DNA of 64,000 nucleotides, from the sequence record OR228459.1; one strand, given 5' to 3'. The notes beneath the pieces are model-generated. The model did not search any database, was not told the origin of the DNA, and saw only the letters and a list, made by a program, of their open reading frames with translations. A program made the translations under genes and the position numbers. The DNA comes from Klebsiella phage fENko-Kae01. Of the stretch, positions 3,514-60,829 are shown one piece after another (positions within the stretch are counted from its first letter, which is position 1; each line of letters opens with the position of its first letter).

Positions 3514-6500
3514 ATGTATATAGATGGATTTATGGAACGTAAACGAACTGGTGATATTCTACATGTAGCAGAACGTATTAACGGTCGTCGTGTACTTCGT
3601 CAACTAGACCCTGTATATGAATACTATGTTGAATCACCAACGGGAACATTTAAAACCATTCACGGTACAATGGCTGAGAAATTAACCTTTGCTAACCAAC
3701 GTGATATGCGTAGTTCCCTTGAACTACATCAAGGTCGTCGAACCTACGAATCTGACTGTAACGTTACCTTTAAAACTCTTGCACAAGAGTACATGGGTAA
3801 AGGTTCACCAGATTTGAATATGGTATTCTTCGATATTGAAACCGACTTCCATAAGAAGCTCGGATATGCACCACCAAGTAACCCATTTAACCGTGTTACT
3901 GCAATTTCCCTTTATCAGAACTGGACAGGTAAAGATTATGTACTAACCTTACCACCTGATGATATGGAATTAGTTGAAGCACAGGATATCGTTAACCGAT
4001 TGAATGAAGAAACTAATGATCCTAACAGTGTAGTACTTCTTTACACTGAAGAAACAGAAATGTTCAATGACTTCTTTGATTTGATTGATGATGCTGATGT
4101 ACTTTCTGGCTGGAATAGTGAGTTCTTCGATATTCCATACATGGTTAACCGTACTGCAAAAATCTTCAATGCTGCAACTACGGCTCGTTGGTGTTTGTGG
4201 AATAAAAAACCTGTATCTCGTGAAGCAGATATGTTTGGTAAAACAATTGTCACTTATGACTTAATCGGTCGTGTTCACCTAGATTATCTAGCGTTGTATA
4301 AGAAACACGCAGGTCAAGTCGAACAATCGTACAAACTAGACTTCATCGCAGAGAAAGTTACAAAAGAAAATAAAGTAGCGTATGAAGGTTCTCTTGACAA
4401 ATTGTACAGAGAGGATTATATTACATTCCTACGTTATTCCAAACAGGATAGCATTCTTCTTAAAAAGATTGATGAGAAGTTAGACTACATCAACCTACAC
4501 AACCGACTAGCACACAAAGAATGTGTACTAATCAGTACTACAATGGGTTCTGTAGCACTAATTGACACAGCAATCATAAACCTTGCACACTCAAGAGGTG
4601 AAGTGGTATTTGATAAGAAGCCACAAGAAGATGATGTTACTGAACAAGATGATCGTTATGATTACCTCATTGAAGATGAGGATGATGGTTCAGATAATGA
4701 ACCAGTATCGGCAAAAGCTGCTGGTGCATGGGTACAAGATCCAGTACTAGGACTTGTAGACTACTTAGGATGTACTGACTTTAACTCACTATATCCAACA
4801 GTACTACGTACATTAGGCATGAGTACTGAATGTATTCTTGGACAAATTCGCCAAGATTATACAGATGCACATCTTGCAAAACGTGTAGAAGAACAACGTA
4901 TGCGTTCTAAGTCTAAGAAGTTCGAACCTAACTGGACAGAAGCATGGCACGGTCTATTTGCAAGTGTTGAATTCACGATGGTTCGTGAGCGTTCAGAGCA
5001 AACACTAATTGTTGATTTGGAAGATGGCACTAGTTTCAACGTGACAGGTGCAGAGCTTCATGATATCATTTATGCTGAAGACAGTACTATTGTACTTTCT
5101 GCTAATGGTACGTTGTTCGATAAAACTAAATCTGGGGTCATTCCAGAGATTCTAACTCAATGGTATTCTGAGCGTAAGTCTCAACAGAAGATGGTAATCG
5201 ACTTCAAACACATTTATACTGATGGTTGGGAAATGCCAGAGGACGCTATCGATAAGATAGAGGCTGCTATGGCTCGCTACAAGCGTTCTGAGACGATGTA
5301 TAGAACGAACCTACACGAAGACGATCCAGTTTATTTGATTCGTCAGGCGTTGGTACAGAGCGATTATGAGCAGGTTGGAAAGCTAATCACAGAGAATGGT
5401 CTTCTACTAGAAGATGGTCGTATCAAATGTACTAAAGAAGAGAAAAAATATTGTAAAACGCAATCTGCGTTCTGGAAGCAGAACCAACAGATTCGTAAGA
5501 TTCTTCTCAACTCTCTTTATGGTGCATTGCTCAACAAAGGTTCTAGATTCTTTGATAAACGTTTAGGTCAATCTGTAACCTTAACTGGTCGTAGTATGAC
5601 TAAACATATGGCATCCCGTATCAACGAAATTTGTACTGGTGAATACAATCACCAAGGCGGCGTTGTAATTTACGGCGACACCGACTCCGTTTACTTTAGT
5701 GTAGCTCACTACATGAAAGAACAGGGTCTACCATTTGATTTAACAAAAGAAGAAGTTGTTGATCTATATGTGAAAATTGGTGATGAAGTTGGTGCATCTT
5801 TCCCTTCCTTTATGGATGAATATTTCAATACTGGTATCGAGAAAGGTAAAATCGTAGGTGCAGATTTGGAAATGGTAGGCTCTCGTGGTCTATTCTTGAA
5901 GAAAAAGCGTTATGCGATCCTCAAATATTGGGAAGATGGATTCCGTAAAGACGAAGATGGATCACCGGGCGAAATCAAGGCTATGGGATTAGAAATCAAA
6001 CGTTCTGATACACCAAAGTATATCCAAGATTTCCTACAAGAAACTCTTATCGCATTGCTAGTTGGCGAAGGAGAAGAAGAACTACGTAATAGAGTTCGTG
6101 CATTCAAAACTATTTTCCGTGATAAGCCTATTCAGCAGAAAGGGCAACCACGTACAGTTAAAAACTATTCGAATCTAGAAGAAGAATATAAGAAAACTGG
6201 TAAATTATCAGTATCGCATGTTCTAGCTGCGATTCAATGGAACAAACTACGTGATATATATGAAGATCAATCAGTTCCAGAAGCAACTGACGGTACTAAA
6301 GTTATCGTTTGTAAGTTAAAGCCAAACCCAATGGGAATAAAAGCTGTCGGCTACCCAATTGATTGTGCTGAATACTTACCAGAATGGTTCTTGGAGCTAC
6401 CTTTTGATGAAGATGAGATGGAAAAAGCCGTTTTGACTAAGAAACTAGGTAATATTTTCGGTATTCTAAACATGGATATCGCAATCAACGAGAAGAGTAC

Positions 6501-6534
6501 ACTAGTAATGGATAGTGGATTCTTCGAATGGTAA
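3514..6534 (+). CDS. DNA polymerase, family B (T4 gp43-like)
   Basis: Exo I FFDIETD, motif A DFNSLYPT, KILLNSLYG, motif C YGDTDS. 1006 aa. Confidence 0.95.
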   Translation: MYIDGFMERKRTGDILHVAERINGRRVLRQLDPVYEYYVESPTGTFKTIHGTMAEKLTFANQRDMRSSLELHQGRRTYESDCNVTFKTLAQEYMGKGSPDLNMVFFDIETDFHKKLGYAPPSNPFNRVTAISLYQNWTGKDYVLTLPPDDMELVEAQDIVNRLNEETNDPNSVVLLYTEETEMFNDFFDLIDDADVLSGWNSEFFDIPYMVNRTAKIFNAATTARWCLWNKKPVSREADMFGKTIVTYDLIGRVHLDYLALYKKHAGQVEQSYKLDFIAEKVTKENKVAYEGSLDKLYREDYITFLRYSKQDSILLKKIDEKLDYINLHNRLAHKECVLISTTMGSVALIDTAIINLAHSRGEVVFDKKPQEDDVTEQDDRYDYLIEDEDDGSDNEPVSAKAAGAWVQDPVLGLVDYLGCTDFNSLYPTVLRTLGMSTECILGQIRQDYTDAHLAKRVEEQRMRSKSKKFEPNWTEAWHGLFASVEFTMVRERSEQTLIVDLEDGTSFNVTGAELHDIIYAEDSTIVLSANGTLFDKTKSGVIPEILTQWYSERKSQQKMVIDFKHIYTDGWEMPEDAIDKIEAAMARYKRSETMYRTNLHEDDPVYLIRQALVQSDYEQVGKLITENGLLLEDGRIKCTKEEKKYCKTQSAFWKQNQQIRKILLNSLYGALLNKGSRFFDKRLGQSVTLTGRSMTKHMASRINEICTGEYNHQGGVVIYGDTDSVYFSVAHYMKEQGLPFDLTKEEVVDLYVKIGDEVGASFPSFMDEYFNTGIEKGKIVGADLEMVGSRGLFLKKKRYAILKYWEDGFRKDEDGSPGEIKAMGLEIKRSDTPKYIQDFLQETLIALLVGEGEEELRNRVRAFKTIFRDKPIQQKGQPRTVKNYSNLEEEYKKTGKLSVSHVLAAIQWNKLRDIYEDQSVPEATDGTKVIVCKLKPNPMGIKAVGYPIDCAEYLPEWFLELPFDEDEMEKAVLTKKLGNIFGILNMDIAINEKSTLVMDSGFFEW

Positions 6535-8004: not shown

Positions 8005-9582
8005 ATGAGTACTCCACGCTTTATTGCTGATACCCACTTGGGTCACCGCAATATCTATAAGTATAGAAAAGTATTCGATAGTACTAAACATAATGACTTG
8101 TACTTTATTCGTATCCTGCAAGAAACTTGCAAGAAAAGAGATACTATGTTTTTCTTGGGTGATATTTGTTTTGACAAACAATATCTAGAAATTATAAAAG
8201 AACTTCCGGGACAAAAAATTCTTATTCCGGGAAATCACTGTATTTCACCCGATACTGAAGTATTAACACAAAACGGCTGGAAAGTAGCAGAAACTATCAC
8301 GTTTAGCGATATTATTGCTAGCACCAACTTACAAACAAACATTGTTTCATATGATTCACCAATCAATGTTGCTAGACATGAAAACATGAAAATGGTGAAA
8401 GTTTCAGGAAGTTATATTGATGAATTTGTTTCTAATACACATAATATGGTATATGAAAATACACTAACGTCTGTGTCATCATTATACGGTAAACATGATA
8501 GTAATAGTTTCAAATATTCATGTATGAATTCAAATACTGGAATTAATGAGAGTGATGATTGGATTTATTTGTTACAGTTTGTAATTGCAGATGGATGTTT
8601 GGTTAAGGGTGAAACCCCCAACAAAAAGAGAATTCAATTCAAATTGGCAAAACCTAAAAAAATTGAAAAGTTAAAATCAATTTTAGAAAAATTATCCATA
8701 TCATATACTATTCAAGAATGTAAAAAATCCAAATCAAACATTCTAACGCCATACTATATTAGAATTTATGGTGATGATGCAAGAACTATATGGGATAAAT
8801 TATCGGGTATAAAAACTCCACCTGACGAATGGAAATTTATGAACAAGTCACAAATGACGGTTTGGATAAATGCAATACATGATTCTGATGGTTATAAAGA
8901 AATTAATAATAGTTATTTAACAACTATAGATAAAAATTTTGTAAATATATTCCAACATGCTTGTGTGACGAATAATATAGCTTGTAAATATAGTGAATTA
9001 GTACCAACGAGTGGGTTTCGCAATGGTAAATTACAATATAAAATTGTATTCAAAACCATTGATGAGTATGTAAATAGTACAAAACGTGTTTACATAGATA
9101 TTACCGATATCATGTCAGATGTGGTTTCTATTCAAACCATCAATGGAACATTGATTACTCGCCGCAACGGAAAGGTTTCAATAACTGGTAATTGTACTGA
9201 ATATATTCCAATGAAAGAACTAGTAGATGTTTATGATGAAGTACATGCACTACTAAAATATAAAGAATTCTGGCTTTCTCATGCACCAATTGCTGATGTT
9301 GAATTACGTGGTAAAAGAAATATTCATGGACATGTTCATGCACAGTCTGTTCCTGATATTAAATATCTAAACACTTCTGTTGATAGTGAATTTATGAGAT
9401 TTCTACCTAGAACACTTCATGAAGTTCGTCAAGCATTTGAAACAATGGAACAACTCGGTTCACATTATGGTGGATTAGAAGACCGCGATGATGCATTAGA
9501 AGTTATCATGTCAAATCCTATTTCAAAAGCGGCTTACGTGTGGTCTAAGAAAGAAGCAGAAAAGATTATGGTTTTTCAATAA
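8005..9582 (+). CDS. calcineurin-like metallophosphoesterase interrupted by an intein
   Basis: N-extein has IADTHLGH, FLGDICFD, IPGNH. C-extein has LSHAPI and GHVHAQ. A 318-aa insertion separates them. Confidence 0.7.
   Translation: MSTPRFIADTHLGHRNIYKYRKVFDSTKHNDLYFIRILQETCKKRDTMFFLGDICFDKQYLEIIKELPGQKILIPGNHCISPDTEVLTQNGWKVAETITFSDIIASTNLQTNIVSYDSPINVARHENMKMVKVSGSYIDEFVSNTHNMVYENTLTSVSSLYGKHDSNSFKYSCMNSNTGINESDDWIYLLQFVIADGCLVKGETPNKKRIQFKLAKPKKIEKLKSILEKLSISYTIQECKKSKSNILTPYYIRIYGDDARTIWDKLSGIKTPPDEWKFMNKSQMTVWINAIHDSDGYKEINNSYLTTIDKNFVNIFQHACVTNNIACKYSELVPTSGFRNGKLQYKIVFKTIDEYVNSTKRVYIDITDIMSDVVSIQTINGTLITRRNGKVSITGNCTEYIPMKELVDVYDEVHALLKYKEFWLSHAPIADVELRGKRNIHGHVHAQSVPDIKYLNTSVDSEFMRFLPRTLHEVRQAFETMEQLGSHYGGLEDRDDALEVIMSNPISKAAYVWSKKEAEKIMVFQ
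8239..9192 (+). mobile_element. intein with LAGLIDADG homing endonuclease domain (Cys1 ... GN/Cys+1)
   Basis: Begins CISPDTEVLT (block A). LAGLIDADG-like LLQFVIADGCL and WINAIHDSDGYK. Ends VSITGN with C+1. Confidence 0.65.
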
Positions 9583-20806: not shown

Positions 20807-21760
20807 ATGCCTAAACGAAAAACACACGAAGAATTCTTACAAGAAAGTATTGCCATTTATGGTGATCAATTCCAATACTGTTCAATATACAAAAACACGG
20901 ATACACCAATGGATTTTATATGTAAATTTCATGGTGAATTTTCACAAATTCCAAAAATACACTTACGTGGTAATGGTTGTCCAAAATGTACTGGTAATGT
21001 TAAACTAACAACAAACGAGTTTATACGGATATCGAATATGATTCATGGTTGTGAATATGACTATACAAAAACTCAATATAGAAACCGAGATACTGATGTA
21101 GTTATAACATGTTCAAAACATGGGGATTTTAATATGAATCCACGTGTACATATGAACGGTGGAAAATGCACACTTTGTACTGGACGTAAAAAATTAACAA
21201 CTGAATCCTTTATTGAAAAATCCAAACAAATTCATGGTGATGGTGTATATTCATATGATAAAGTTGTATATGGTAAAAACAATAAAGAAAAAGTTGAGAT
21301 TATTTGTAATAAGCATGGTTCGTTTTTACAACGACCTAATGATCACTTATCTGGTAAGGGTTGTAAACGATGCTCCGATGAATCGGTTGTATCTAAGGCA
21401 GTATCAGAAATTACCAATTGGTTAACTGAAAATGATATTGTTCATGTTCGTGAATATATATTTGACAACTGTTCTAATATTAATAAGTTGAGATTTGATT
21501 TTTATATACCTCATTTGAATATGTGCATTGAATATGATGGAATACAACATTTCAAATCATTTGAACATTGGGGTGGTGATGAAAAATTAAAACAAATACA
21601 AATAAATGATGAAATAAAAAATTTATACTGCATTGATAATGGTATACAACTTGTGCGTATTAAGTACACGCAAAACCATATAAAATGCATTGAAAAGGTA
21701 ATAAAAAAATATGATCAAGATGGAAGAATTTCTACAGAAAGTGGTTGTAAACGATACTGA
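20807..21760 (+). CDS. putative free-standing homing-type endonuclease: three Zn-ribbon repeats plus a C-terminal Vsr/DUF559-like PD-(D/E)xK domain
   Basis: Three repeats of about 60 aa with pattern T.EEFI...IHG..Y.Y...KHG.F...P..H..G.GCxxC. The C-terminus has RFDFYIP...CIEYDGIQH...GIQLVRI. Confidence 0.5.
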   Translation: MPKRKTHEEFLQESIAIYGDQFQYCSIYKNTDTPMDFICKFHGEFSQIPKIHLRGNGCPKCTGNVKLTTNEFIRISNMIHGCEYDYTKTQYRNRDTDVVITCSKHGDFNMNPRVHMNGGKCTLCTGRKKLTTESFIEKSKQIHGDGVYSYDKVVYGKNNKEKVEIICNKHGSFLQRPNDHLSGKGCKRCSDESVVSKAVSEITNWLTENDIVHVREYIFDNCSNINKLRFDFYIPHLNMCIEYDGIQHFKSFEHWGGDEKLKQIQINDEIKNLYCIDNGIQLVRIKYTQNHIKCIEKVIKKYDQDGRISTESGCKRY

Positions 21761-22529
21761 GACTACTGGTGTGGATGAAGATGATGATATTATTGAATTC
21801 AGTGCTTCGTTTCCAATGTCAGCACAGGATGGGATTGATGATATTATTAACTACACAAATCGTTATAAACCACTAAAACCAGTACCAGCAATTGCATCTT
21901 CAGTACATTTCATTACTGACGACGATCTTGTAGATTGTGGTAGTTACAAAGATGATATTGAAAATATTGACGCACTCTTTACTTCACGTGAATTCTATGT
22001 GGGTCATAACGTTGATTTTGACCGTGATATGTATATTCAGAATCACCGCAAAAGTACTGGTATCGTACCAGAATATATGATCGACAATACTAAGTGGATT
22101 TGCACCTTACGTTTAGCAAAAAAACTTTTTGCCGAAGATATGGAATATGAAAACTTTAAACTAAGTTATCTATGGTTCAAGTATGGTTTGAATAAAACAG
22201 TTGATCGTCCAATCAATGCTCACGCAGCAAAGGATGACGTGTACATGTGCTTCAAAGTACTCGTCAAGCTAGTTGAGATTTGTATTGAACGTGGTGTAAT
22301 TGATCCAAACCAAGATATTGGTGAACAAATTATTGCATTCTGCAATAAACCTTATCGTTATCAGATTATGCCTATTGGTAAACACAAAGGAGAAAAAATG
22401 AAAGATGTTCCCTTGAACTACTTGAACTGGATGATAACTAATAGTGACATTCTAAATGCTGATTTGCCTAACTACGATGTAGACTTGGCTTACACTATCG
22501 AATGTGAGTATTCAGAAAGAACCAATTGA
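21711..22529 (+). CDS. DEDD 3'-5' exonuclease (DexA/DnaQ-like)
   Basis: Exo I motif VVVNDTETTG. Later HNVDFD and H..AKDD motifs. Confidence 0.6.
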   Translation: MIKMEEFLQKVVVNDTETTGVDEDDDIIEFSASFPMSAQDGIDDIINYTNRYKPLKPVPAIASSVHFITDDDLVDCGSYKDDIENIDALFTSREFYVGHNVDFDRDMYIQNHRKSTGIVPEYMIDNTKWICTLRLAKKLFAEDMEYENFKLSYLWFKYGLNKTVDRPINAHAAKDDVYMCFKVLVKLVEICIERGVIDPNQDIGEQIIAFCNKPYRYQIMPIGKHKGEKMKDVPLNYLNWMITNSDILNADLPNYDVDLAYTIECEYSERTN

Positions 22530-22546: not shown

Positions 22547-24031
22547 ATGAGTGGAGTTTGTAGACTTATACTTCAGGATGAAGTAAACTGTAAATTCGAG
22601 GGGCTTGACCCCTCAATTAGAAACAAAATGATTAGTGAAGTTTCTTACGTACTTCCTTACGCTCGATATACTCCTGCTGGACGTATGGGCCGCTGGGACG
22701 GTAAAGTAAACTTCATGAATATGGGCGGTAGTACTTATTATCATATGTTAGATAAATTACTACCCATCTTGGATAAACATAATGTGTTGATTGATGTTAT
22801 TGATGAACGCATTACATATGATTTTGATTTTGACCCAATCGATGAAAATCTTTTCGATTATGTTGAATTTCCAGTGGGACACCACATGGAAGGTAAAAAA
22901 ATCATTCTACGTGAGCACCAAGTAAATGCGGTTAATGCATGTTTGAAAAACCAACATGGATTACTACTTGCAAGTACGAGTTCAGGTAAAACTCTAATCA
23001 CTGCGGCACTATCTAAATGTGTAGAGAAATATGGTCGTAGTATTATCATCGTACCAAGTACTGATCTAGTACAGCAAACATATAATGACTACGCTATGGT
23101 TGGATTAGATGCTGGTGTATTTTATGGTGATAAAAAAGAACTAGGACATACCCATACTATTACGACTTGGCAATCCCTAAACTCTTTGTGGAAAAAAACA
23201 AAGAAAGATGAGATTCCAATGACTGAGCAGGACATTCACGACTTCATTGATGGTGTGGTGTGTGTTATGGTTGATGAGGCCCATACAAGTGCTGCTGATG
23301 CACTACAGGCTGTTTTAGGACAGGTAATGTGTCGTATTCCATTACGTTGGGGTTTAACTGGTACAATCCCAAAAGATCCAGTTCTAGCAGCGAAAATCAA
23401 GTGCAATGTCGGTGACATAATATATACGATCACTGCGAAAGAATTACAAGACAAGAATATCTTGAGTACTTGTAATGTGAACTGTATCAAATTGAAAAGT
23501 TCATTGAAGTTTGCAACCTATCCAGAAGAAATGAAGTTCTTAGTAACTGACCGGGATAGGATGAAGTACATTGCCACATTGATTGCAGCTATTGCAGAGA
23601 GTGGAAATACATTAGTGTTAGTTGACAGGTTGGAAGCTGGTGAATTACTTTGTGAGTACTTAGGAATTCCCAAATCTGAATTTGTTCGTGGTAATACGAA
23701 GAAGAAAGACCGTGAAGCCTCTTATGGTGAAATCCGTTGGGCTGATAACAAAATTCTAATTGCTACATACGGTGTTGCAAGTACTGGTATTAGTATCAGT
23801 CGCTTGTATAACGTTGTATTGATTGAACCGGGTAAATCATTCGTTCGTACAATTCAGAGTATTGGGCGTGGACTACGCCGAGCAGAAGACAAAGATCACG
23901 TTGAAATATATGATATTTCGGGTTCGAACAAATATTCAGCAAAACACTCAAGGGAGAGAATCGCATACTACAAAGAGGTGGAATATCCTTATAATCAGGT
24001 AGTTGTTGAAGATTGGCAAAACTTGGGATGA
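22547..24031 (+). CDS. uvsW: UvsW-like SF2 helicase
   Basis: N-terminus GRWDGKVNFMN resembles T4 UvsW GNWDGRIRLLD. Walker A STSSGKT, DEAH box MVDEAHT, helicase C region. Confidence 0.7.
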   Translation: MSGVCRLILQDEVNCKFEGLDPSIRNKMISEVSYVLPYARYTPAGRMGRWDGKVNFMNMGGSTYYHMLDKLLPILDKHNVLIDVIDERITYDFDFDPIDENLFDYVEFPVGHHMEGKKIILREHQVNAVNACLKNQHGLLLASTSSGKTLITAALSKCVEKYGRSIIIVPSTDLVQQTYNDYAMVGLDAGVFYGDKKELGHTHTITTWQSLNSLWKKTKKDEIPMTEQDIHDFIDGVVCVMVDEAHTSAADALQAVLGQVMCRIPLRWGLTGTIPKDPVLAAKIKCNVGDIIYTITAKELQDKNILSTCNVNCIKLKSSLKFATYPEEMKFLVTDRDRMKYIATLIAAIAESGNTLVLVDRLEAGELLCEYLGIPKSEFVRGNTKKKDREASYGEIRWADNKILIATYGVASTGISISRLYNVVLIEPGKSFVRTIQSIGRGLRRAEDKDHVEIYDISGSNKYSAKHSRERIAYYKEVEYPYNQVVVEDWQNLG

Positions 24032-25029: not shown

Positions 25030-25877
25030 TAATGTTTGATTTCAGTAATACAAAAGAATCTACTCCAGTAGAAGACTATGAGGTTGAAAAGAAAGTAGAT
25101 CTTGATATGAACCTTCTACTTGAGAAGATTGACACTGCACAGTACGAGTATTTTGAAACACTAAGTGATAATGAAAAGAAAAGTTTTCAACCTTATGTGA
25201 TTCAGCGTTGGATTAGTTCACTTGATGATTCTATGCAAGTAACATACTCAGCTAAAAGTGTTGAAGCTATATTTGGTAAATGGGCTAAAGGTGGCAAAGA
25301 CGCACTAAATGAATTACGTACTGAATTTATCAATAACGGTATTGAATGTATTGGTGTTGCAAAATATCAACACGCACAATATGACTGGCGTATAAAATTT
25401 GCAGTGAAGAACAAAGCAGCAGCCGAGAAACTTATTCAGGCTATGCAAGAGTTCAGTATTACTGGATATGAAATTGTATCATTGGTTGACAGTACTACTT
25501 ACAAACATCTTCTAATTATGTTGAATGACATGGTTAACGAAGGTATGTGGGAAATGCAGAATACACCAGATTTAGTTTACCAACTTCTATGTTCTGTATC
25601 TTCTATTGTAGGTGGACGCAAACAAGCACACACTTGGTTGCCTTTCCCTAAAGGCTTAAAGAATGTAAATAAAAACTTATTTGAACTCATCAAGAAAACA
25701 CAGCCAATGTTAACGGCAGCACAACTTTCCGAAGTTGAGTACAAAATTCTTTTATTGGGTTATGATAAGAAATCATTTGAGGCACTTCTTGAGGACTTTG
25801 GTTTTCAAGATAGTGATAAGAAAGACTATCTAAAACAATTCAAGGCAGAGTGTGAGAAATATGGCAAAACTAGCTAA
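25026..25877 (+). CDS. hypothetical protein
   Basis: 283 aa with ATGA overlap to the upstream gene. Confidence 0.5.
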   Translation: MIMFDFSNTKESTPVEDYEVEKKVDLDMNLLLEKIDTAQYEYFETLSDNEKKSFQPYVIQRWISSLDDSMQVTYSAKSVEAIFGKWAKGGKDALNELRTEFINNGIECIGVAKYQHAQYDWRIKFAVKNKAAAEKLIQAMQEFSITGYEIVSLVDSTTYKHLLIMLNDMVNEGMWEMQNTPDLVYQLLCSVSSIVGGRKQAHTWLPFPKGLKNVNKNLFELIKKTQPMLTAAQLSEVEYKILLLGYDKKSFEALLEDFGFQDSDKKDYLKQFKAECEKYGKTS

Positions 25878-26571
25878 AAAAGCACCCACGTATAAATGTG
25901 GGTTTTGCAATAAAGAGTTTAAAAGAGAAGAAACAGTTTTAACACATAAATGTGAAAAACGTGAAAGATATAATAATCGTGACTCCCGCCAGATGCGGGA
26001 GGCATTTCGTATCTATATGCTGTTCATGAACAAACATAAACTAAGTATGGGTAAGAATGAAGAACCATTAATGCACTTTATTAAATCAAAGTACTTTAAT
26101 GATTTTTATAAATTTGCTGATTATATACTATCTAATGATATTTTGAACAAAGAGCAATTTGTTGAAACTATTATGACTAGTGGTAAACCAGTATATGAAT
26201 GGATGACTCATAAAACACTAGAAGAATGGGTTATTAAATGTATTCGTGAAGAACATCCACGTAGAGCAATAGAGAGATCTATTCCAGCATTAGTTGAATG
26301 GGCTGAAATTGTTGATAGTGATTGGACGAACTTCTTTCGTGAAGTAAGTTCAGTACGTGCTATTCAATGGTTTGAATGTGGTAAAATATCACCGTGGCTC
26401 ATCTACATTGCCCCCACTGCATCCGGTAATGCCCTCTTCTCCAGATTATCGACTTCTGAATTAGAATATCTAATTCGGTTCATCGATCCTACTTTTTATC
26501 AAATGAAACAAATAAAATACAAAGAAGATTGTGATTATATCAGGCAACTTCTTATTGAGGCTGGATTATGA
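25852..26571 (+). CDS. hypothetical protein with N-terminal C2H2-like zinc finger
   Basis: YKCGFCNKEFKREETVLTHKC. Confidence 0.5.
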   Translation: MRNMAKLAKKAPTYKCGFCNKEFKREETVLTHKCEKRERYNNRDSRQMREAFRIYMLFMNKHKLSMGKNEEPLMHFIKSKYFNDFYKFADYILSNDILNKEQFVETIMTSGKPVYEWMTHKTLEEWVIKCIREEHPRRAIERSIPALVEWAEIVDSDWTNFFREVSSVRAIQWFECGKISPWLIYIAPTASGNALFSRLSTSELEYLIRFIDPTFYQMKQIKYKEDCDYIRQLLIEAGL

Positions 26572-26924
26572 GTAATATATATAAAGGGCAGGATAACCCT
26601 AAACCTACAATCTATAACACAAAAGTAAATGAAACAGAAAGTCCAAAGAAAAGTACAACATCGCCGCAGATTAAACTTCTTCGCGAAGCACACGTTACCG
26701 AAATCACACTTGGAGACCAAACACTCAGAGTAATGGATGCTGGTCATATTCAGGGTGTTATTAATATGATTGAGAAACATCATAGTAGTATTGAGCAATT
26801 AAACAAAACTGTTAATAACTTGAATAGGACTATCCGCACGTTGAATGGTCAAATACAAGACATGAATCGTGAAATTGATCAACTAAAAGGGATATTGAAA
26901 ATAAATGGAAACAACTACTTATAA
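26568..26924 (+). CDS. hypothetical coiled-coil protein
   Basis: 118 aa with heptad-like C-terminus. Confidence 0.45.
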   Translation: MSNIYKGQDNPKPTIYNTKVNETESPKKSTTSPQIKLLREAHVTEITLGDQTLRVMDAGHIQGVINMIEKHHSSIEQLNKTVNNLNRTIRTLNGQIQDMNREIDQLKGILKINGNNYL

Positions 26925-27537
26925 GAAAGCTAGAACTGACGTTGATATAGACGTTCGCAATTCCAAAGAAGTAATTGAACAATTACCATGTGTGAGAAGT
27001 GTTGAAATCATTAATGAAGATGGTTTTCTAGTACATAAGAGTGGGATTCATTTTGATAACATACCAGTAGACCCTATTACTGGATATGCGAGCATACCAT
27101 ATAAAGAAGCCGAAAGATTAGGATATCAAAAGGTTGATATACTGTCTCAATCGGCTTATATGTATGTTCGTGATCGTGAACATTTAAAAGAATTAATGGC
27201 ACGTGAGCCAGATTGGTCATTATTATTAGTTCCAGAAATTGTTGAACAATTATCTCAGATTAAAAAACATATTTCATTATTACAAATATGGAAACCAAGT
27301 TCTGTTGACGAATTAGCTATGTTTATTGCTATGATTCGTCCGGGCAAACGCCAATGTCAGAGCATGAATAGTTGGGATGAAGTTAGGGCTACGATTTGGG
27401 ATTATAGTACAATAGGGCTTGACGGGGAAGGTAAGAAACAACGTTATTTCAAAAAACCACATGCTTATGCATACAGTCTAATGATTGTTGTGCAATTAAA
27501 TGCTTTAGTTGAGCATCTTATGTCTTCCTCTTCTTGA
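26905..27537 (+). CDS. miniature Pol III alpha (C-family polymerase) palm-core-like protein, 210 aa
   Basis: Ordered motifs DVDIDVRNSKEVIEQL, HKSGIHF, QKVDILS, AMIRPGK, KKPHAYAYSLM. They correspond to DnaE PDIDVDF..RDxVIxYV, KHAGGVVI, KFDFLGL, ALFRPGP, NKSHSAAYAL. Confidence 0.45.
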   Translation: METTTYKKARTDVDIDVRNSKEVIEQLPCVRSVEIINEDGFLVHKSGIHFDNIPVDPITGYASIPYKEAERLGYQKVDILSQSAYMYVRDREHLKELMAREPDWSLLLVPEIVEQLSQIKKHISLLQIWKPSSVDELAMFIAMIRPGKRQCQSMNSWDEVRATIWDYSTIGLDGEGKKQRYFKKPHAYAYSLMIVVQLNALVEHLMSSSS

Positions 27538-27886
27538 GGGTAATATTTCTTCGTTTGATTCGTTTAGTTGGCAAATCACTAAGTGATATTGCCGGGCCTG
27601 ATATAAAGGTGACACTATCGGTATTAAAACGTTGAGTATAATTTTCGTAAGTCTCCATCTCTTCTTGCATAAAGAGGCAGATGGGGATTGACCGATTGCT
27701 TTGCCACCACCAAGTATCAGCTAGATCTAGCAGATCTTTTTGATGGGATTCTTCCATTAGATGGAAACAGTATAAAGTTGTATATTGTTTACTCTTAATC
27801 TTTATAATCCCATAATAGATATTCCCGTCATGTTCCAGTACTGTAACATACGGTGGGTAAGTTTTACACATTAATAGGACTCCCAT
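27518..27886 (-). CDS. possible antisense small basic protein (doubtful)
   Basis: Only ORF covering the 400-nt gap in + coding. No obvious SD at the first ATG. A TATAAATA motif on the - strand lies at 27915-27922. Confidence 0.25.
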   Translation of the reverse strand: MGVLLMCKTYPPYVTVLEHDGNIYYGIIKIKSKQYTTLYCFHLMEESHQKDLLDLADTWWWQSNRSIPICLFMQEEMETYENYTQRFNTDSVTFISGPAISLSDLPTKRIKRRNITLKKRKT

Positions 27887-27933
27887 AAATATTATATAGT
27901 TTAAAAGTACATAGTATTTATAGAGGTAAACTA

Positions 27934-28905
27934 ATGGCACATTACGGCGTTTATACGTACCCGACTAATAATGAAGTAGCACTTGGCAACTTCAACTTAC
28001 CTTTCAATCAAGAAAAGGTTGTAATTTATCGTGGTGCAAACAATTCATTATCCTTTTCAGTACATAACGCTGATGGTAAGTATACCTTACTACGAGACGA
28101 TGAATATTTAATTTTTGCAATTTTTGATGCTCGAAACAATACAAAGATTTATGATGTATTGCTAGAGAAAATATTACCCTCATGGGTATCTGAAGCTGGT
28201 CAAGCAAGGCCAACATTAAGTAATAAGAAAAAAGTGTATTACGGTTGCGTAGTCCCTGCTGGCGTTATTCAAGATTTAAGCCCCGGTTCGAAGTATCGTT
28301 GGACAATTCACAAAGTTCGTCTAAATGGTGATCTTGTCGAACCAACAGAATTTCTGTATACTGGATTAGGTTTTGAAGCTAGTGCAGAATTGATTATTAG
28401 TGATCAAGCTGCACCGGTATTTGTTGCATCCCAAGAGATTAGTGCGGCGAAGAATTCTTCATGGCTACCGATTGCACACAAATCAGAGCAACCCATTGCA
28501 AATGGGGTAAAAGGGGATTACGAAGTATTACACTCTTCAGCTATACGTGCTGGTTGCCAGTACGGTTTGGTTGAGGGCTTAAGTACTATCGCATTCTATT
28601 TTCAAAACTTTATCGGTCGAATTCAACTTCAAGGTTGTTTGGCTAATAATTCTCCAAATGATAACGAGGAATACAAGTGGTTCATCATTAAGCTAGATGG
28701 AAAAGAGTACATCGAAAGTGGCTGGGATGAACATGGTGCACCAAAATCTATTGATGGAATCCAAGCCTTTAACTTCAAGGGGAATTATATGTGGGTACGT
28801 GCGGTTTGCTGCATCCCGCCGTTAGTACGACACTATGAACCAAACGAGGTGGTCAAGTATTACGAACCGTTGAAGACTGTCCCTAAAATTTTAATCAGAC
28901 GATAA
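27934..28905 (+). CDS. hypothetical protein
   Basis: 323 aa, beta-rich, possibly structural. Confidence 0.5.
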   Translation: MAHYGVYTYPTNNEVALGNFNLPFNQEKVVIYRGANNSLSFSVHNADGKYTLLRDDEYLIFAIFDARNNTKIYDVLLEKILPSWVSEAGQARPTLSNKKKVYYGCVVPAGVIQDLSPGSKYRWTIHKVRLNGDLVEPTEFLYTGLGFEASAELIISDQAAPVFVASQEISAAKNSSWLPIAHKSEQPIANGVKGDYEVLHSSAIRAGCQYGLVEGLSTIAFYFQNFIGRIQLQGCLANNSPNDNEEYKWFIIKLDGKEYIESGWDEHGAPKSIDGIQAFNFKGNYMWVRAVCCIPPLVRHYEPNEVVKYYEPLKTVPKILIRR

Positions 28906-28962: not shown

Positions 28963-30021
28963 ATGAATCAGGTTCAAATTATTGTGGCAAACTTGATGCA
29001 AGATCCTGTACCAGCAATGGGAGCATGGAAGCATCATAATTGCCCTGCATGTGTATTCAAAGGTCAACCACGCCCTGATACACGTGGACGTGGGAACCAC
29101 GTCTTTAATAATGATGGTGGAATAGGTTATAACTGTTTCAACTGTGGTATTAAAGTAAACTGGCAACCCGGAAGGTATATGAGCAACGATATGGAAACGT
29201 TGCTCATTTCGTATGGTGCGTCAGATAAAGATATTGCCTTTATTAAACTTTTCATTGATGAAATGGTTAAGAGTGGAGAATACGAGGTTGAGGAATCCGC
29301 CTCGAATAAGTTATTCCAGCGAATAACAAAACGCGAGTTACCACCTGATGCAAAGAGTTTTGCAGAGTGGGCGAGTACTCCAGATATTGAACGCTTACAG
29401 CCTAAGTTCATTAGTGTTCTAGAAGCTGTTAATATGCGTAATCCATATCTACTGGACTTAGATATCTACTGGAGTCCATCAAAAGAACATCGTATGTATG
29501 ATAGGTTTATTATACCTTATTATATGCACGGTGAAGTAATAGGTTACACTGCTAGACACAAAGATATGGATAGTGATTATCGCTATGTCAATCAAGTAAG
29601 TACTAGCCTTCTTTATAACTTTGATTTGCTCAATGATGAAAGAATTAAAGTTATATTTGTGGCAGAAGGCCCGATTGATGCTGCCTTAATGTGCGGTGTA
29701 TCTGCCAATAACTATTACCTCACAACTGCTCAAATAGAACTATTGAAAGCAGCACAACAAAGAGGTAAAAAAATAGTTATAGTACCAGACCGTGACAAAG
29801 ATGGTTTGAAAGCGATTGACCAAGCAAAGGAACATGGATTTGCAGTATCGTTCCCTGATTATGGTACAGTCAGACAACCTGACGGAAGGGGAATCCGTCA
29901 CATAAAAGATTTAGATGAAGCATGTGCTAAGTATGGTAGGTTATTCTGTGTGCAGTTAATACACGCTAGCATAGTAGAAGACCCATTTTACATTGAAGTA
30001 CAAAAGGGCAAATGGATTTGA
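28963..30021 (+). CDS. DNA primase (T4 gp61-like; Zn ribbon plus TOPRIM)
   Basis: CPACVF..CFNCG zinc ribbon. TOPRIM motifs FVAEGPIDA and VPDRDKDG. Confidence 0.85.
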   Translation: MNQVQIIVANLMQDPVPAMGAWKHHNCPACVFKGQPRPDTRGRGNHVFNNDGGIGYNCFNCGIKVNWQPGRYMSNDMETLLISYGASDKDIAFIKLFIDEMVKSGEYEVEESASNKLFQRITKRELPPDAKSFAEWASTPDIERLQPKFISVLEAVNMRNPYLLDLDIYWSPSKEHRMYDRFIIPYYMHGEVIGYTARHKDMDSDYRYVNQVSTSLLYNFDLLNDERIKVIFVAEGPIDAALMCGVSANNYYLTTAQIELLKAAQQRGKKIVIVPDRDKDGLKAIDQAKEHGFAVSFPDYGTVRQPDGRGIRHIKDLDEACAKYGRLFCVQLIHASIVEDPFYIEVQKGKWI

Positions 30022-30032
30022 GGAAAGAATAA

Positions 30033-31577
30033 ATGGCTTTAGTAAACACGGACGTTAAACAATATGGAATTAACTATCAAGAGTATCTACTTTCACAGGT
30101 TCTAAGCAATCCAGACATTTTTGTACGTTGTAAGGGTATTCTTAAACCTGATTATTTTGATAAGGAATTTCATAGCAGTATTACTTTTGTGCATGAGCAC
30201 TCACAAAAATATAATACCACTCCTACCTTAGATGATATTGAGTTTAAAGGTGGTTATCGTTATCGACATACACCTGTGGATGCATTAGGTGAGCAAGCAG
30301 TACTGGATGATATTGGTCAGTTTTGTCGTCACAAAGCACTAGCTCTAGCAATTCAACAAGGTATGGAATTAGTAAATCAGAAGAAGTATGGTGGAATTGA
30401 AGAACTTATTCGTGAAGCAATGCTAGTAAGTGTTCAAAACGAATTAGGTCTAGACATTTATGAAAACCCAGAAGAAGTAATCCGTTCATTGAATATGAAT
30501 CAAGGTTCATTCAAGACTGGTTGGGAAACATTAGATTTTAAACTATACGGTGGATTCGGTCGTCAAGAACTAGAAATCTTCGCTGCGGCATCAGGTGGTG
30601 GTAAATCTGTAGTACTACAAAACTTAGCAGTTAACTTCTCCAAACAAGGTAAAGTTGGTGCTTATATATCTCTAGAGCTAGCAGAAGAACTTGTTGCAGT
30701 TCGTATCTATTCAATGATGGTGAACAAAGATAACAAGTCTATTAAATCTTCACCCGAAAATGCAAGTATTCAGATTAAACTAGAAGAGAAGACAAATGGT
30801 TCTTTACGTATTCATCGTATGCCAGAATCGGTTACTACCGTAAATGATATTGAAAGTTATCTTCGTGAACTACAAATTAAAACTGGTCTAAAGTTAGATT
30901 ATGTTTGCGTGGACTATCTTGATCTATTAACATCAGACCGTTGTGGCCCAAATGATAAATCTAATGCGTTCGTTAAAGATAAGTTTGTATCAGAAGAATT
31001 ACGTGCACTTGCTATGAAAATGGATATCACAGTCGTCACTGCTTGTCAGTTTAACCGTAGTGGTATTAGTGAAGAGAAGAAAAGCCAATCACAAATCGCT
31101 GGTGGTATTTCTAAAATCTACACAGCAGATAACGTAATCTATATTGAAGCTCGCCGCGAAACTGGTGAAATGTGGTTCGACTTCCAGAAAACTCGTAACA
31201 GTGGTGCAGTAGGATCTCGTCTACGTATGTCATATAATACTGACAGTCTACGTGTACTTGACCATAGCATTACAGTACAGCAAATGGAAATCGATGGTTC
31301 TGGTTTCAAACACTCAGATGGTTCTAACCCTGCGAAAGTAGGTGGTGGAAACGTCACTGGAGCACCCGGAGTGCCACTACAGCAATCTCCAATGCAGATG
31401 CTACATAGTCACTTCCAAAGCTGTCAAGCAGCTTCTACGGCGGCTCCAGATGCCCCTGTACCCCAATCTCCCGGTATTCAAGATACTTCTAAATCATCTA
31501 GTATAAATACTACAAATGACGCTAGCATTAACAATGAAAACATGTTAGCCATCAGGAGTTTATTGAATAGGAAATAA
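30033..31577 (+). CDS. replicative DnaB-family helicase (T4 gp41-like)
   Basis: Walker A AAASGGGKSV, RecA-like core, low-complexity C-terminal extension. Confidence 0.85.
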   Translation: MALVNTDVKQYGINYQEYLLSQVLSNPDIFVRCKGILKPDYFDKEFHSSITFVHEHSQKYNTTPTLDDIEFKGGYRYRHTPVDALGEQAVLDDIGQFCRHKALALAIQQGMELVNQKKYGGIEELIREAMLVSVQNELGLDIYENPEEVIRSLNMNQGSFKTGWETLDFKLYGGFGRQELEIFAAASGGGKSVVLQNLAVNFSKQGKVGAYISLELAEELVAVRIYSMMVNKDNKSIKSSPENASIQIKLEEKTNGSLRIHRMPESVTTVNDIESYLRELQIKTGLKLDYVCVDYLDLLTSDRCGPNDKSNAFVKDKFVSEELRALAMKMDITVVTACQFNRSGISEEKKSQSQIAGGISKIYTADNVIYIEARRETGEMWFDFQKTRNSGAVGSRLRMSYNTDSLRVLDHSITVQQMEIDGSGFKHSDGSNPAKVGGGNVTGAPGVPLQQSPMQMLHSHFQSCQAASTAAPDAPVPQSPGIQDTSKSSSINTTNDASINNENMLAIRSLLNRK

Positions 31578-59619: not shown

Positions 59620-59928
59620 ATGTTTGATCCATTTTTTGACCCATCGGGTATGACTGATAAGGAATTACAACAAAAAATCTTTGATATGAGTAATCGTATA
59701 ACACAAGCACGTAATGCTGGAATGCCATCAGACATGATAGTACGTATGTACCTTGTTATTGATGCATGTGATGAAGAAATGTTATTTCGTGCATCTAGAA
59801 AGGAATACGAACAACTCGAAGATGAAGATACATGTGTATTCGATACCGAGTCTTACTTGAATAAAGAAGAGGATAAGAATAAAAAACATGAAAGTCCAAG
59901 GAAACAGATATATAAATCAGGATGGTGA
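59620..59928 (+). CDS. hypothetical protein
   Basis: 102 aa with GGAG RBS. Confidence 0.45.
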   Translation: MFDPFFDPSGMTDKELQQKIFDMSNRITQARNAGMPSDMIVRMYLVIDACDEEMLFRASRKEYEQLEDEDTCVFDTESYLNKEEDKNKKHESPRKQIYKSGW

Positions 59929-60406
59929 GGTATACTGCAATTTAAATGCAGTAGTCTACGCTATGAATTGTGGTTCAGATTTGCAATATCTCAAATTAAT
60001 GGAGATGGATGAATTTGAACGTGAAAAATTCAATGATAACTGTAAGAAGTTTGGATTAGAATATCGTATGCTCGATTACACAATCGAGCACGATAAGAAT
60101 CATGAGCTATGGCGATATGACCCAGCTTATGATAATATAAATTTAGAAGAGTACTTTCTAAACTTGTGTGAAACTGATGCACAAAAGCAGAGAGTACTGG
60201 AAGAACTTAGCTTATATGAACAATACAACATGACTAAGCTACTACGCTGCATGATGTGGTTAGTTGATTACCTTGAAGAACATAATATCTTTTGGGGTTT
60301 AGGTCGTGGTAGTTCAGTGAGTAGTTATTGCTTATTTTTACTAGGATTGCATTTGGTTGACAGTCTTAAATATGAGCTTGATGTAAATGAGTTCTTGAAA
60401 TGGTAA
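59888..60406 (+). CDS. hypothetical protein
   Basis: 172 aa in a different frame, overlapping the previous ORF by 41 nt. Start uncertain. Confidence 0.4.
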   Translation: MKVQGNRYINQDGEVYCNLNAVVYAMNCGSDLQYLKLMEMDEFEREKFNDNCKKFGLEYRMLDYTIEHDKNHELWRYDPAYDNINLEEYFLNLCETDAQKQRVLEELSLYEQYNMTKLLRCMMWLVDYLEEHNIFWGLGRGSSVSSYCLFLLGLHLVDSLKYELDVNEFLKW

Positions 60407-60436: not shown

Positions 60437-60829
60437 ATGGCAAAACACACCTCTTATCGTGGTCAGACCATTGATATGGATATGATGAAATATCAAAATC
60501 AGACTGCGACTGCTCTTGGCAATGCAAACATGAATGCACGTGGTGATAAAATCGGTCAAGGTGGCACTGTCATCAAGACTCGTGAAGAACTACTTGCTGA
60601 ACGTGAACGTCAAATGCAACTACCAGATTTCATTCCAGAACATACTAGCCACTCAGTAGCAGTACAAACTGCTGATGAAGGATTTGATGATTCTATGTTC
60701 GAACTACCAGAACAAGAACCGGTAGCTGCACCTGTACAGCCTGTACAGGAAGCTAAAGAAGAACCAGCTAAAGAAGCAGTGGAGAAAGTTTCCCCACGCA
60801 GAGTACGTACTAAGAAAGACGGAGAGTAA
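60437..60829 (+). CDS. hypothetical protein
   Basis: 130 aa with AGGA RBS. Confidence 0.5.
   Translation: MAKHTSYRGQTIDMDMMKYQNQTATALGNANMNARGDKIGQGGTVIKTREELLAERERQMQLPDFIPEHTSHSVAVQTADEGFDDSMFELPEQEPVAAPVQPVQEAKEEPAKEAVEKVSPRRVRTKKDGE

Follow-up and report, generated by a model that had tools for sequence, protein, structure and literature searches.

How can a phage protein of 210 residues carry the catalytic motifs of the α subunit of DNA polymerase III (Pol III α), and what can it do with them? The question is raised by an open reading frame (ORF) of Klebsiella phage fENko-Kae01, found in a stretch of 64,000 nucleotides of record OR228459.1, which is called the window below. The answer, very probably, is that the protein is the C-terminal subunit (the C unit) of a minimal C-family nucleotidyltransferase which the Rak2/121Q-like (group 2.2) jumbo phages encode in two genes. 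The window belongs to a Rak2/121Q-like jumbo myovirus; it is 99.6% identical, over the 3 kb tested, to the Salmonella phages 7t3, SE_PL, Munch and PHA46.

The original prediction described the product as a free-standing mini palm core, of a kind unfamiliar to its author. The unfamiliarity did not hold, since the split minimal Pol III α is found in the literature, in PHROGs and in GenBank. Iyer, Anantharaman, Krishnan, Burroughs and Aravind (2021, Viruses 13:63; PMC7824862) described a split minimal DNA polymerase III alpha in group 2.2 jumbo phages, which consists of two stand-alone proteins from distant genes, an N-terminal unit that binds the nucleoside triphosphate (NTP) and a C-terminal unit that binds Mg2+ and the template. 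According to the same study, the split enzyme occurs alongside a family B polymerase in Rak2-, PA5oct- and Atu_ph07-like phages, no other Pol III domains occur in these phages, and the role is proposed to be auxiliary, for example in primer extension, the synthesis of one strand or repair. Earlier, the CBB genome paper had noted the N fragment of 172 residues as a "truncated" Pol III α. The papers on PaBG, PA5oct and MIJ3 do not discuss the C-unit protein. The C unit is thus already known as a computational prediction. What is new here is the mapping of the split point on E. coli α, the structure-based confirmation for the C unit and for the pair of N and C units, two unsplit relatives (one of which is coupled to a Replicase gene), three tightly linked neighbor genes, and the presence of a DnaQ-like exonuclease in the same genomes.

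The ORF listing and the translation of the window agree that the frame runs on the + strand from an ATG at 26905 to a TGA at 27535-27537, as first reported. The five segments that had been likened to DnaE motifs are all present in the product: DVDIDV (D12-V17), HKSGIHF (H44-F50), QKVDILS (Q75-S81), AMIRPGK (A142-K148) and KKPHAYAYSLM (K183-M193). The gene and its motifs are as follows.

26905..27537, + strand: putative C unit of the split minimal Pol III α, 210 residues; Mg2+-binding half of the palm and a reduced fingers core
26938..26952, + strand: catalytic β-strand DxDxD, D12-V-D14-I-D16; equivalent to P-D-x-D-x-D-F of DnaE (D401/D403/D405 in E. coli)
27034..27045, + strand: H44-K-S-G47; β-hairpin in place of the thumb region of DnaE, which is about 90 residues larger
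27130..27138, + strand: K76-V-D78, strand of the third catalytic carboxylate; K-x-D of KFDFLGL
27337..27348, + strand: R145-P-G-K148, fingers motif; ALYRPGP of DnaE
27451..27474, + strand: K183-K-P-H186-A-Y-A-Y190, fingers motif; FNKSHSAAYA of DnaE

Scans for promoters and terminators in the vicinity of this ORF gave nothing relevant above the shuffled expectation.

These motifs are kept far beyond the closest phages (the proteins of SE_PL, 7t3 and PHA46 are 100% identical to the C unit). An exhaustive search of a library of 1.84 billion proteins returned 522 relatives, 142 of them at E 1e-30 or better. Conservation was assessed in 74 homologues, and also in 101 full-length representatives of 50%-identity clusters from the exhaustive search. 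D12, D14, D16, H44, G47, D78, R145, P146, K148 and H186 are invariant in the 74 homologues. Among the 101 representatives, K76 and D78 are present everywhere; D12 and D14 are each found in 99, D16 in 95 (with 2 Glu), H44 in 98, G47 in 97, R145 in 98, P146 in 100, K148 in 90, K183 in 91 (with 6 Arg), H186 in 96 and Y190 in 87 (with 8 Phe). The residues of the motifs thus experience strong selection, and the catalytic ones remain near-invariant down to about 35% identity.

The reference for the C family consists of the structures 2HNH, 2HPI, 3E0D, 3F2B and 5LEW of the PDB, and of the Pfam families PF07733 (palm) and PF17657 (fingers). In the C unit alone, a Pfam search gives no match to PF07733 at E up to 10; only the partner ORF described below, and the fusion of the two proteins, pass. 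The fingers family gives 12.3 bits, for a cut-off of 22 (E 0.11, residues 124-156), and a phmmer search of the PDB gives only noise (dynein, PrfA). Since the searches based on the single sequence are uninformative, profiles and structures are needed.

When a profile of 22 C-unit homologues is compared to the PDB, the sole matches are Pol III α chains. It aligns with M. tuberculosis DnaE1 along four collinear stretches, PDIDIDF (412-424), GLLKMDFLGL (within 568-672), ALYRPGP and FNKSHAAGY (773-788). In E. coli α the matches are to PDFDVDF, LFRPGP (which ends at 644) and FNKSHSAAYALV (756-767), the K183-Y190 motif being aligned with FNKSHAAGY in the former protein and with FNKSHSAAYALV in the latter. 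The DnaE motifs to which the five segments had been likened are thus recovered in alignments to real DnaE1 and E. coli α. The placement of DxDxD on PDxDxDF differs by 2 residues between two HMMER alignments; since all three Asp are conserved, nothing hinges on this register.

The predicted structure of the C unit points in the same direction. The top ten Foldseek matches in the PDB are all Pol III α, and pairwise structural comparison gave the following values.

PolC 3f2b: 9.6 (186 of 210 residues aligned)
Taq Pol III α 2hpi: 9.1
M. tuberculosis DnaE1: 8.3 and 8.0
E. coli α: 7.0 and 6.9
PolC 9qpc: 6.7 (the next match, which is unrelated, has 4.2)

The model thus resembles the palm and fingers cores of solved Pol III α and PolC, as the first assignment led one to expect, and its fingers core aligns structurally even though PF17657 is below threshold. 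Altogether, the homology of the C unit to the catalytic core of Pol III α and PolC, with the acidic triad and the finger motifs kept, is supported. The initial description of the five segments as a palm core has to be amended in one respect: the C-family homology stands, but the fourth and fifth motifs belong to the fingers (the sub-threshold PF17657 match) rather than to the palm.

The C unit shares with canonical DnaE and PolC the catalytic acidic triad on two palm strands (PDxDxDF ... KxD) and, judging from its model, the three-dimensional arrangement of the solved cores. It is not a canonical member: it is below both Pfam thresholds, and has no GS (Gly-Ser) motif, PHP, thumb, clamp-binding or OB domain. 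Bacterial Pol III α and PolC are single chains of about 1,000-1,450 residues with PHP, β-clamp-binding, HhH, OB and τ-binding regions, whereas the phage N and C units together have 382 residues in two chains and none of these regions. The distance from DxDxD to KxD is 62 residues in the phage protein and about 150 in E. coli α, which means that the thumb is missing; in the predicted model, a hairpin made by strands E30-37 and E40-49, with H44-K-S-G47, takes its place. Between RPG and KxH there are about 40 residues, for about 118 in E. coli α, which shows that the fingers are reduced. Over the whole set of motifs, 178 residues of the C unit (D12-Y190) correspond to about 363 in E. coli α (D401-Y764), close to the 175 and 370 first estimated. 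The early remark that PHP, clamp-binding and OB domains are absent was also correct, and the thumb can be added to the list: Pfam gives no match to PHP, thumb, β-clamp-binding/HhH or OB domains in either the C or the N unit. Last, the minimal form is viral only, unlike bacterial Pol III α and PolC.

In the Pol-β-like nucleotidyltransferase fold, the incoming NTP is bound by two elements which precede the DxD strand, a helix and a Gly-Ser loop. The C unit has neither, because its ORF begins 11 residues before the DxD strand. The missing piece is encoded elsewhere in the window, and this is where the idea of a free-standing core fails: the NTP-binding helix and the GS loop are in a separate gene of 172 residues, which was found by mapping onto the window the second small protein annotated as "DNA polymerase" in PHA46.

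59888..60406, + strand: putative N unit of the split minimal Pol III α, 172 residues; NTP-binding half of the palm
60296..60328, + strand: GS motif GLGRGSSVSSY, G137-Y147 of the N unit; GPGRGSGAGSL of E. coli α, 359-369

The N unit is encoded on the same strand as the C unit and follows it at a distance of 32.35 kb, which makes the gene order C then N. It matches PF07733 with E 1.7e-8 and 34.9 bits (cut-off 23.9; residues 96-171 on profile positions 20-95), and belongs to PHROG 11127, "DNA polymerase", with E 4e-82. Its C-terminal half reads WGLGRGSSVSSYCLFLLGLHLVDSLKYELDVNEFLKW. The GS motif, which is absent from the C-unit polypeptide and sits in the N unit instead, is also visible in 17 divergent homologues.

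Placed end to end, the two proteins are collinear with a single unbroken segment of DnaE; they separate in the loop between ...ERFLN and PDxDxDF. An in-silico fusion of the N and C units reaches 40.1 bits with PF07733, over profile positions 20-118, and this match runs into the first 25 residues of the C unit. A profile of fused sequences aligns with E. coli α without interruption (E 1.1e-7, fusion residues 98-202 on α 320-421); at the junction, GlGRGssvssY...LdvneFlkw of the N unit followed by metttykkartDiDiDv of the C unit faces GPGRGSGAGSL... of E. coli α. In the N part of the fused alignment G137, G139, R140, G141, S142, S143, V144, S146 and Y147 are invariant. Since the alignment spans the junction, the split can be placed in a loop, with the last helix of the NTP-binding half before it and the catalytic strand after it. 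A model of the fusion superposes on Pol III α. The alignment used for this model (A5) contains only 5 N homologues, and the N half of the model is therefore of modest quality.

That the C unit is a self-sufficient mini palm which transfers nucleotides alone is, in our opinion, very unlikely. It does have all three acidic residues and the finger motifs, highly conserved, its model folds confidently without a partner, and it stands alone in all but two of the best 150 of the 522 relatives. However, it starts too close to the DxD strand to include the NTP-binding helix and the GS loop, the missing piece is the N unit of the same genomes, collinear with it on DnaE, and the two parts are covalently joined in two natural proteins (see below).

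On every testable feature, the locus agrees with the split minimal Pol III α of Iyer et al. (2021): the C unit has the DxDxD, KxD and finger motifs and the fold of the C-terminal unit, the N unit is the NTP-binding unit from a distant gene, and the window contains a family B polymerase in a jumbo phage of the Rak2/PA5oct/Atu_ph07 type. The C-unit ORF shows no difference from what these authors described; it is the same thing.

A nearer candidate for the missing N half, the ORF that overlaps the start of the C unit (26568..26924), was rejected: its product is a coiled coil which belongs to a virion-structural PHROG and shows no Pol III signal. This ORF (118 residues, + strand, phrog_14909) overlaps the C unit by 20 nt and, unlike the other neighbors, is found beside it in just 2 of 80 IMG/VR loci.

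How are the two halves joined, if at all? Readthrough or frameshifting is excluded, because the gene order is wrong: the C-unit gene is 32 kb upstream of the N-unit gene. Joining of the halves after translation by a split intein, into one polypeptide, is a more familiar solution. In cyanobacteria, the catalytic subunit DnaE also comes from two far-apart genes (dnaE-n and dnaE-c), whose large halves are split in the fingers region and spliced together by intein halves; split dnaE genes rejoined by trans-splicing are indeed the classic case. Inteins are moreover common in these phages, since a phosphoesterase gene of the window has one and PolB of MIJ3 another. In the phage proteins, however, the N unit is homologous to Pol III as far as residue 171 of its 172, and the C unit from about residue 8 onwards, so that polymerase homology fills both proteins to their ends and leaves no space for IntN (about 100 residues) or IntC (about 35 residues). 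A C-terminal ...HN with a Cys, Ser or Thr after it is likewise missing, and the N units of 78 out of 78 IMG/VR loci stop at most 45 residues after the GS motif. Trans-splicing is thus effectively refuted by the sequence, and we give it a negligible probability. The phage enzyme is divided within the palm, a single loop ahead of the catalytic strand, and has no intein, whereas cyanobacterial DnaE is split in the fingers and has one. Since there are no intein sequences, any assembly of the N and C units must be non-covalent.

Regarding inteins, the gene mentioned above (8005..9582, + strand) encodes a calcineurin-like metallophosphoesterase (PF00149) split by an intein that contains a homing endonuclease of the LAGLIDADG type (PF14528); the gene product has 525 residues in the window, and the uninterrupted homologue of PHA46 has 207.

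The two units occur together. With tblastn, 95 phage records gave a match to the C unit, and about 95 of these gave one to the N unit as well; the few extra matches of the N unit are weak and are to full-length phage DnaE or PolC. The distance between the two genes (approximate values) varies widely.

RsoM2USA: 4.5 kb
XacN1: 15 kb
Rak2-like phages: 31-34 kb (32.35 kb in the window)
PA5oct: 44 kb
Atu_ph07: 182 kb
Phosso: 224 kb

The split point does not move: it is the same in all 78 IMG/VR loci. Seven IMG/VR matches which seemed to cross the junction, and were considered as possible unsplit forms, were rejected, since each has a stop codon at the junction; the matches run past this stop into an unrelated neighbor gene of 130 residues. 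Among the best 150 of the 522 relatives, all but two have about 100-230 residues; most are full-length, with about 190-215, and the others are fragments.

This constancy also bears on the proposal that the C unit is a functionless, decaying remnant of a phage DnaE which was once full-length. The protein is far shorter than any cellular homologue, and the CBB authors did use the word "truncated" for the N-terminal fragment. The number of close relatives, the near-invariance of the catalytic residues among distant ones, the fixed split point and the tight conservation of the neighbor genes imply long-term purifying selection, by which the idea of a pseudogene is effectively refuted; we regard it as extremely improbable.

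The two exceptions among the relatives are natural single-chain forms, both metagenomic. The first (P0266) is a mini-Pol III α of 375 residues, encoded by a complete ORF (positions 1066-2193) of a 2.4-kb scaffold, L005. It aligns end to end with the in-silico fusion (34% identity, E 3e-53), gapless at the junction, and scores 59.6 bits with PF07733. The second (P0361) has 336 residues and is encoded on an 8-kb contig (L006, 3171-4181), where its start overlaps the stop of a gene for a protein of 552 residues with a PF03090 Replicase domain and a helix-turn-helix, an arrangement of translational coupling. This locus may be that of a small replicon which encodes both a primase-like initiator and a minimal polymerase of its own. 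No close relatives of either protein were found in IMG/VR. These unsplit forms are new here, the family being described as split by Iyer et al. (2021). Natural fusions are independent evidence, which argues that the N and C halves act as one enzyme, and that they do so in a context of replication.

We propose that the N and C units associate non-covalently and form a single Pol-β-like active site. The GS loop of the N unit would position the triphosphate of the deoxynucleoside triphosphate (dNTP), D12 and D14 (possibly with D16) and D78 of the C unit would hold two Mg2+, and the finger residues R145, K183, H186 and Y190 would close over the nascent base pair, the outcome being the template-directed addition of a dNTP to a 3'-OH. 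That the two units rebuild one enzyme is supported indirectly by their collinearity with DnaE, by the fusion model and by the single-chain relatives; we infer both the association and the polymerase activity from these comparisons. The mini-Pol III is probably poorly processive by itself, since it has no PHP, thumb, clamp-binding or OB domain.

Several observations weigh against this proposal. The C unit alone passes no curated sequence threshold (neither PF07733 nor PF17657), the E value of the 22-homologue profile against the PDB is only 0.064, and the Foldseek matches of the C unit have E 8e-3 and a template modeling (TM) score below 0.5. The fusion model is based on an artificial chain in which the two units are covalently fused, and the alignment of its N half is shallow; the predicted local distance difference test (pLDDT) values of the model are 47-57 at the GS loop and at the junction, and residues 1-70 are unreliable. 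The model is therefore no proof of the interface. The absence of a thumb, a clamp-binding motif and an OB fold leaves the grip on the primer-template unexplained, and the presence of a complete, proofreading family B polymerase makes it questionable that a second polymerase is needed. Last, a literature search gave no biochemical or structural study of the split mini-Pol III family.

The main rival to an auxiliary polymerase is that the N and C units do form one enzyme, which is non-templated: a terminal transferase or tailing enzyme, a primer-independent synthase, or an enzyme that makes a nucleotide signal against host defense. The similarity is to the C family specifically, however, the finger motifs are conserved, and the genes are found in the context of a primase, a helicase and a replicase, so that we consider this possibility improbable, if less so than the alternatives discussed above.

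The genes on which the assignment of a role depends are the following.

3514..6534, + strand: family B DNA polymerase with a 3'-5' exonuclease domain, 1006 residues; PF00136 E 1.8e-22, PF03104 E 6.4e-19
28963..30021, + strand: primase, 1.4 kb downstream of the C unit (ORF listing and annotation of PHA46)
30033..31577, + strand: DnaB-like helicase, after the primase (ORF listing and annotation of PHA46)

The C unit lies in a replication module; upstream of it are a gene for a UvsW-type helicase (22547..24031), four small ORFs and the gene of a C2H2 zinc-finger protein. In 57 of 80 IMG/VR loci, a primase gene follows the C unit at a distance of at most 3 kb. Because the C unit is in a conserved block with the primase and the DnaB helicase, its most likely role is that of an auxiliary polymerase beside the family B replicase, for example in primer extension, the synthesis of one strand or repair. 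The family B polymerase is presumably the main replicase of the phage; since it is complete and proofreading, the mini-Pol III is best seen as auxiliary.

A second C-family polymerase with an auxiliary role is found in Firmicutes, where DnaE extends RNA primers before hand-off to PolC. The linkage of the mini-Pol III to primase and helicase genes, and the Replicase-coupled unsplit relative, may be seen as a parallel. The main replicase is PolC in Firmicutes and a family B enzyme in the phage, and the likeness, drawn from genes, is purely one of analogy.

The window also encodes an exonuclease of the kind that could serve the mini-Pol III.

21711..22529, + strand: stand-alone DnaQ/ε-like 3'-5' exonuclease, 272 residues; PF00929 E 5.7e-14; phrog_192, "DNA polymerase exonuclease subunit"

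It has a C-terminal QSregVF_b/ExoX-like domain and lies 4.4 kb upstream of the C unit. Similar DnaQ-like genes are reported in CBB, RsoM2USA, XacN1 and Atu_ph07, which all carry the mini-Pol III. This protein could be the proofreader of the mini-Pol III; PolB has its own exonuclease domain. Next to the exonuclease gene, after an ORF of 153 residues, there is an ORF of 317 residues (20807..21760, + strand) with repeats of a treble-clef zinc-finger unit (DUF4379); since it is absent from this position in the otherwise near-identical PHA46, it probably represents a mobile insertion similar to homing endonucleases.

Three other genes are tightly linked to one unit or the other.

60437..60829, + strand: ORF of 130 residues, phrog_14844, directly after the N unit; a candidate member of the system by linkage only
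27518..27940, - strand: ORF of 140 residues, phrog_11637, converging on the C unit, with a 20-nt overlap at the 3' end of the latter
25852..26571, + strand: protein of 239 residues, phrog_11058, C2H2-like zinc finger at its N-terminus; precedes the C unit

The 130-residue ORF is downstream of the N unit, on the same strand, in 75 of 78 IMG/VR loci (within 300 nt in 69), while the upstream neighbor of the N unit is kept in merely 4 of 78. It consists of about 55 conserved N-terminal residues (..MQGK.VDM..NE..PAVGN..VNARGD.LG.GG..) followed by an acidic, Pro-rich tail, and is a candidate accessory factor. The 140-residue ORF, whose basic C-terminal tail reads ...TKRIKRRNITLKKRKT, follows the C unit, in the opposite orientation, in each of the 78 IMG/VR loci whose sequence extends far enough; it has a homologue in a PA5oct-like phage (E 2e-25), and a weak one (E 1e-5) after the unsplit gene of the 2.4-kb scaffold. 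In 75 of 77 IMG/VR loci, the zinc-finger protein is encoded ahead of the C unit and in the same direction; it is 29% identical to its PA5oct-like homologue (E 1e-40), and its Pfam matches are weak ones to C2H2 zinc fingers alone. PDB sequence searches with the three proteins gave nothing, and the 130- and 140-residue ORFs have no Pfam match either. These linkages do not reflect generic synteny, since in none of 160 IMG/VR loci do the N and C units themselves come within 3 kb of one another.

On the basis of this linkage, the three neighbors are candidates for the missing DNA-holding functions. One may go further and imagine that the split mini-Pol III is the catalytic heart of a small multi-subunit polymerase, whose DNA-holding parts come from the 130-residue, 140-residue and C2H2 proteins, and which extends the primers made by the primase and hands off to the family B replicase. 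We put this forward tentatively, as a doubtful extension of the auxiliary-polymerase proposal. If it were true, the phage would have a counterpart of the division of labor between DnaE and PolC, or between Pol α and Pol δ, and the single-chain relatives would be the simplest known self-contained C-family replicases.

Regarding annotation, the PHROGs families of the C unit (11778) and of the N unit (11127) are both labeled "DNA polymerase", and the labels of the C unit in GenBank include "DNA polymerase", "DNA polymerase III alpha" and "DnaE-like DNA polymerase III alpha". The protein is still a "putative membrane protein" or "hypothetical protein" in 7t3, GAP32 (JN882285), pEa_SNUABM_12/47/50, CBB (KU574722) and Muenster, while newer records name it a DNA polymerase; this inconsistency is worth correcting.

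With 382 residues in two chains, about one third of the size of DnaE, the pair is the smallest known core of a C-family replicative polymerase, and a split, self-assembling minimal polymerase could serve as a scaffold for engineering. If it is active, it would give a minimal parts list for a class of polymerases otherwise seen only as large, multidomain bacterial enzymes, and a test of the idea of Iyer et al. (2021) that phage forms of this kind are similar to the ancestral state. In addition, it would mean that, in these phages, a bacterial-type Pol III module works beside a family B replicase of the archaeo-eukaryotic type in one replisome.

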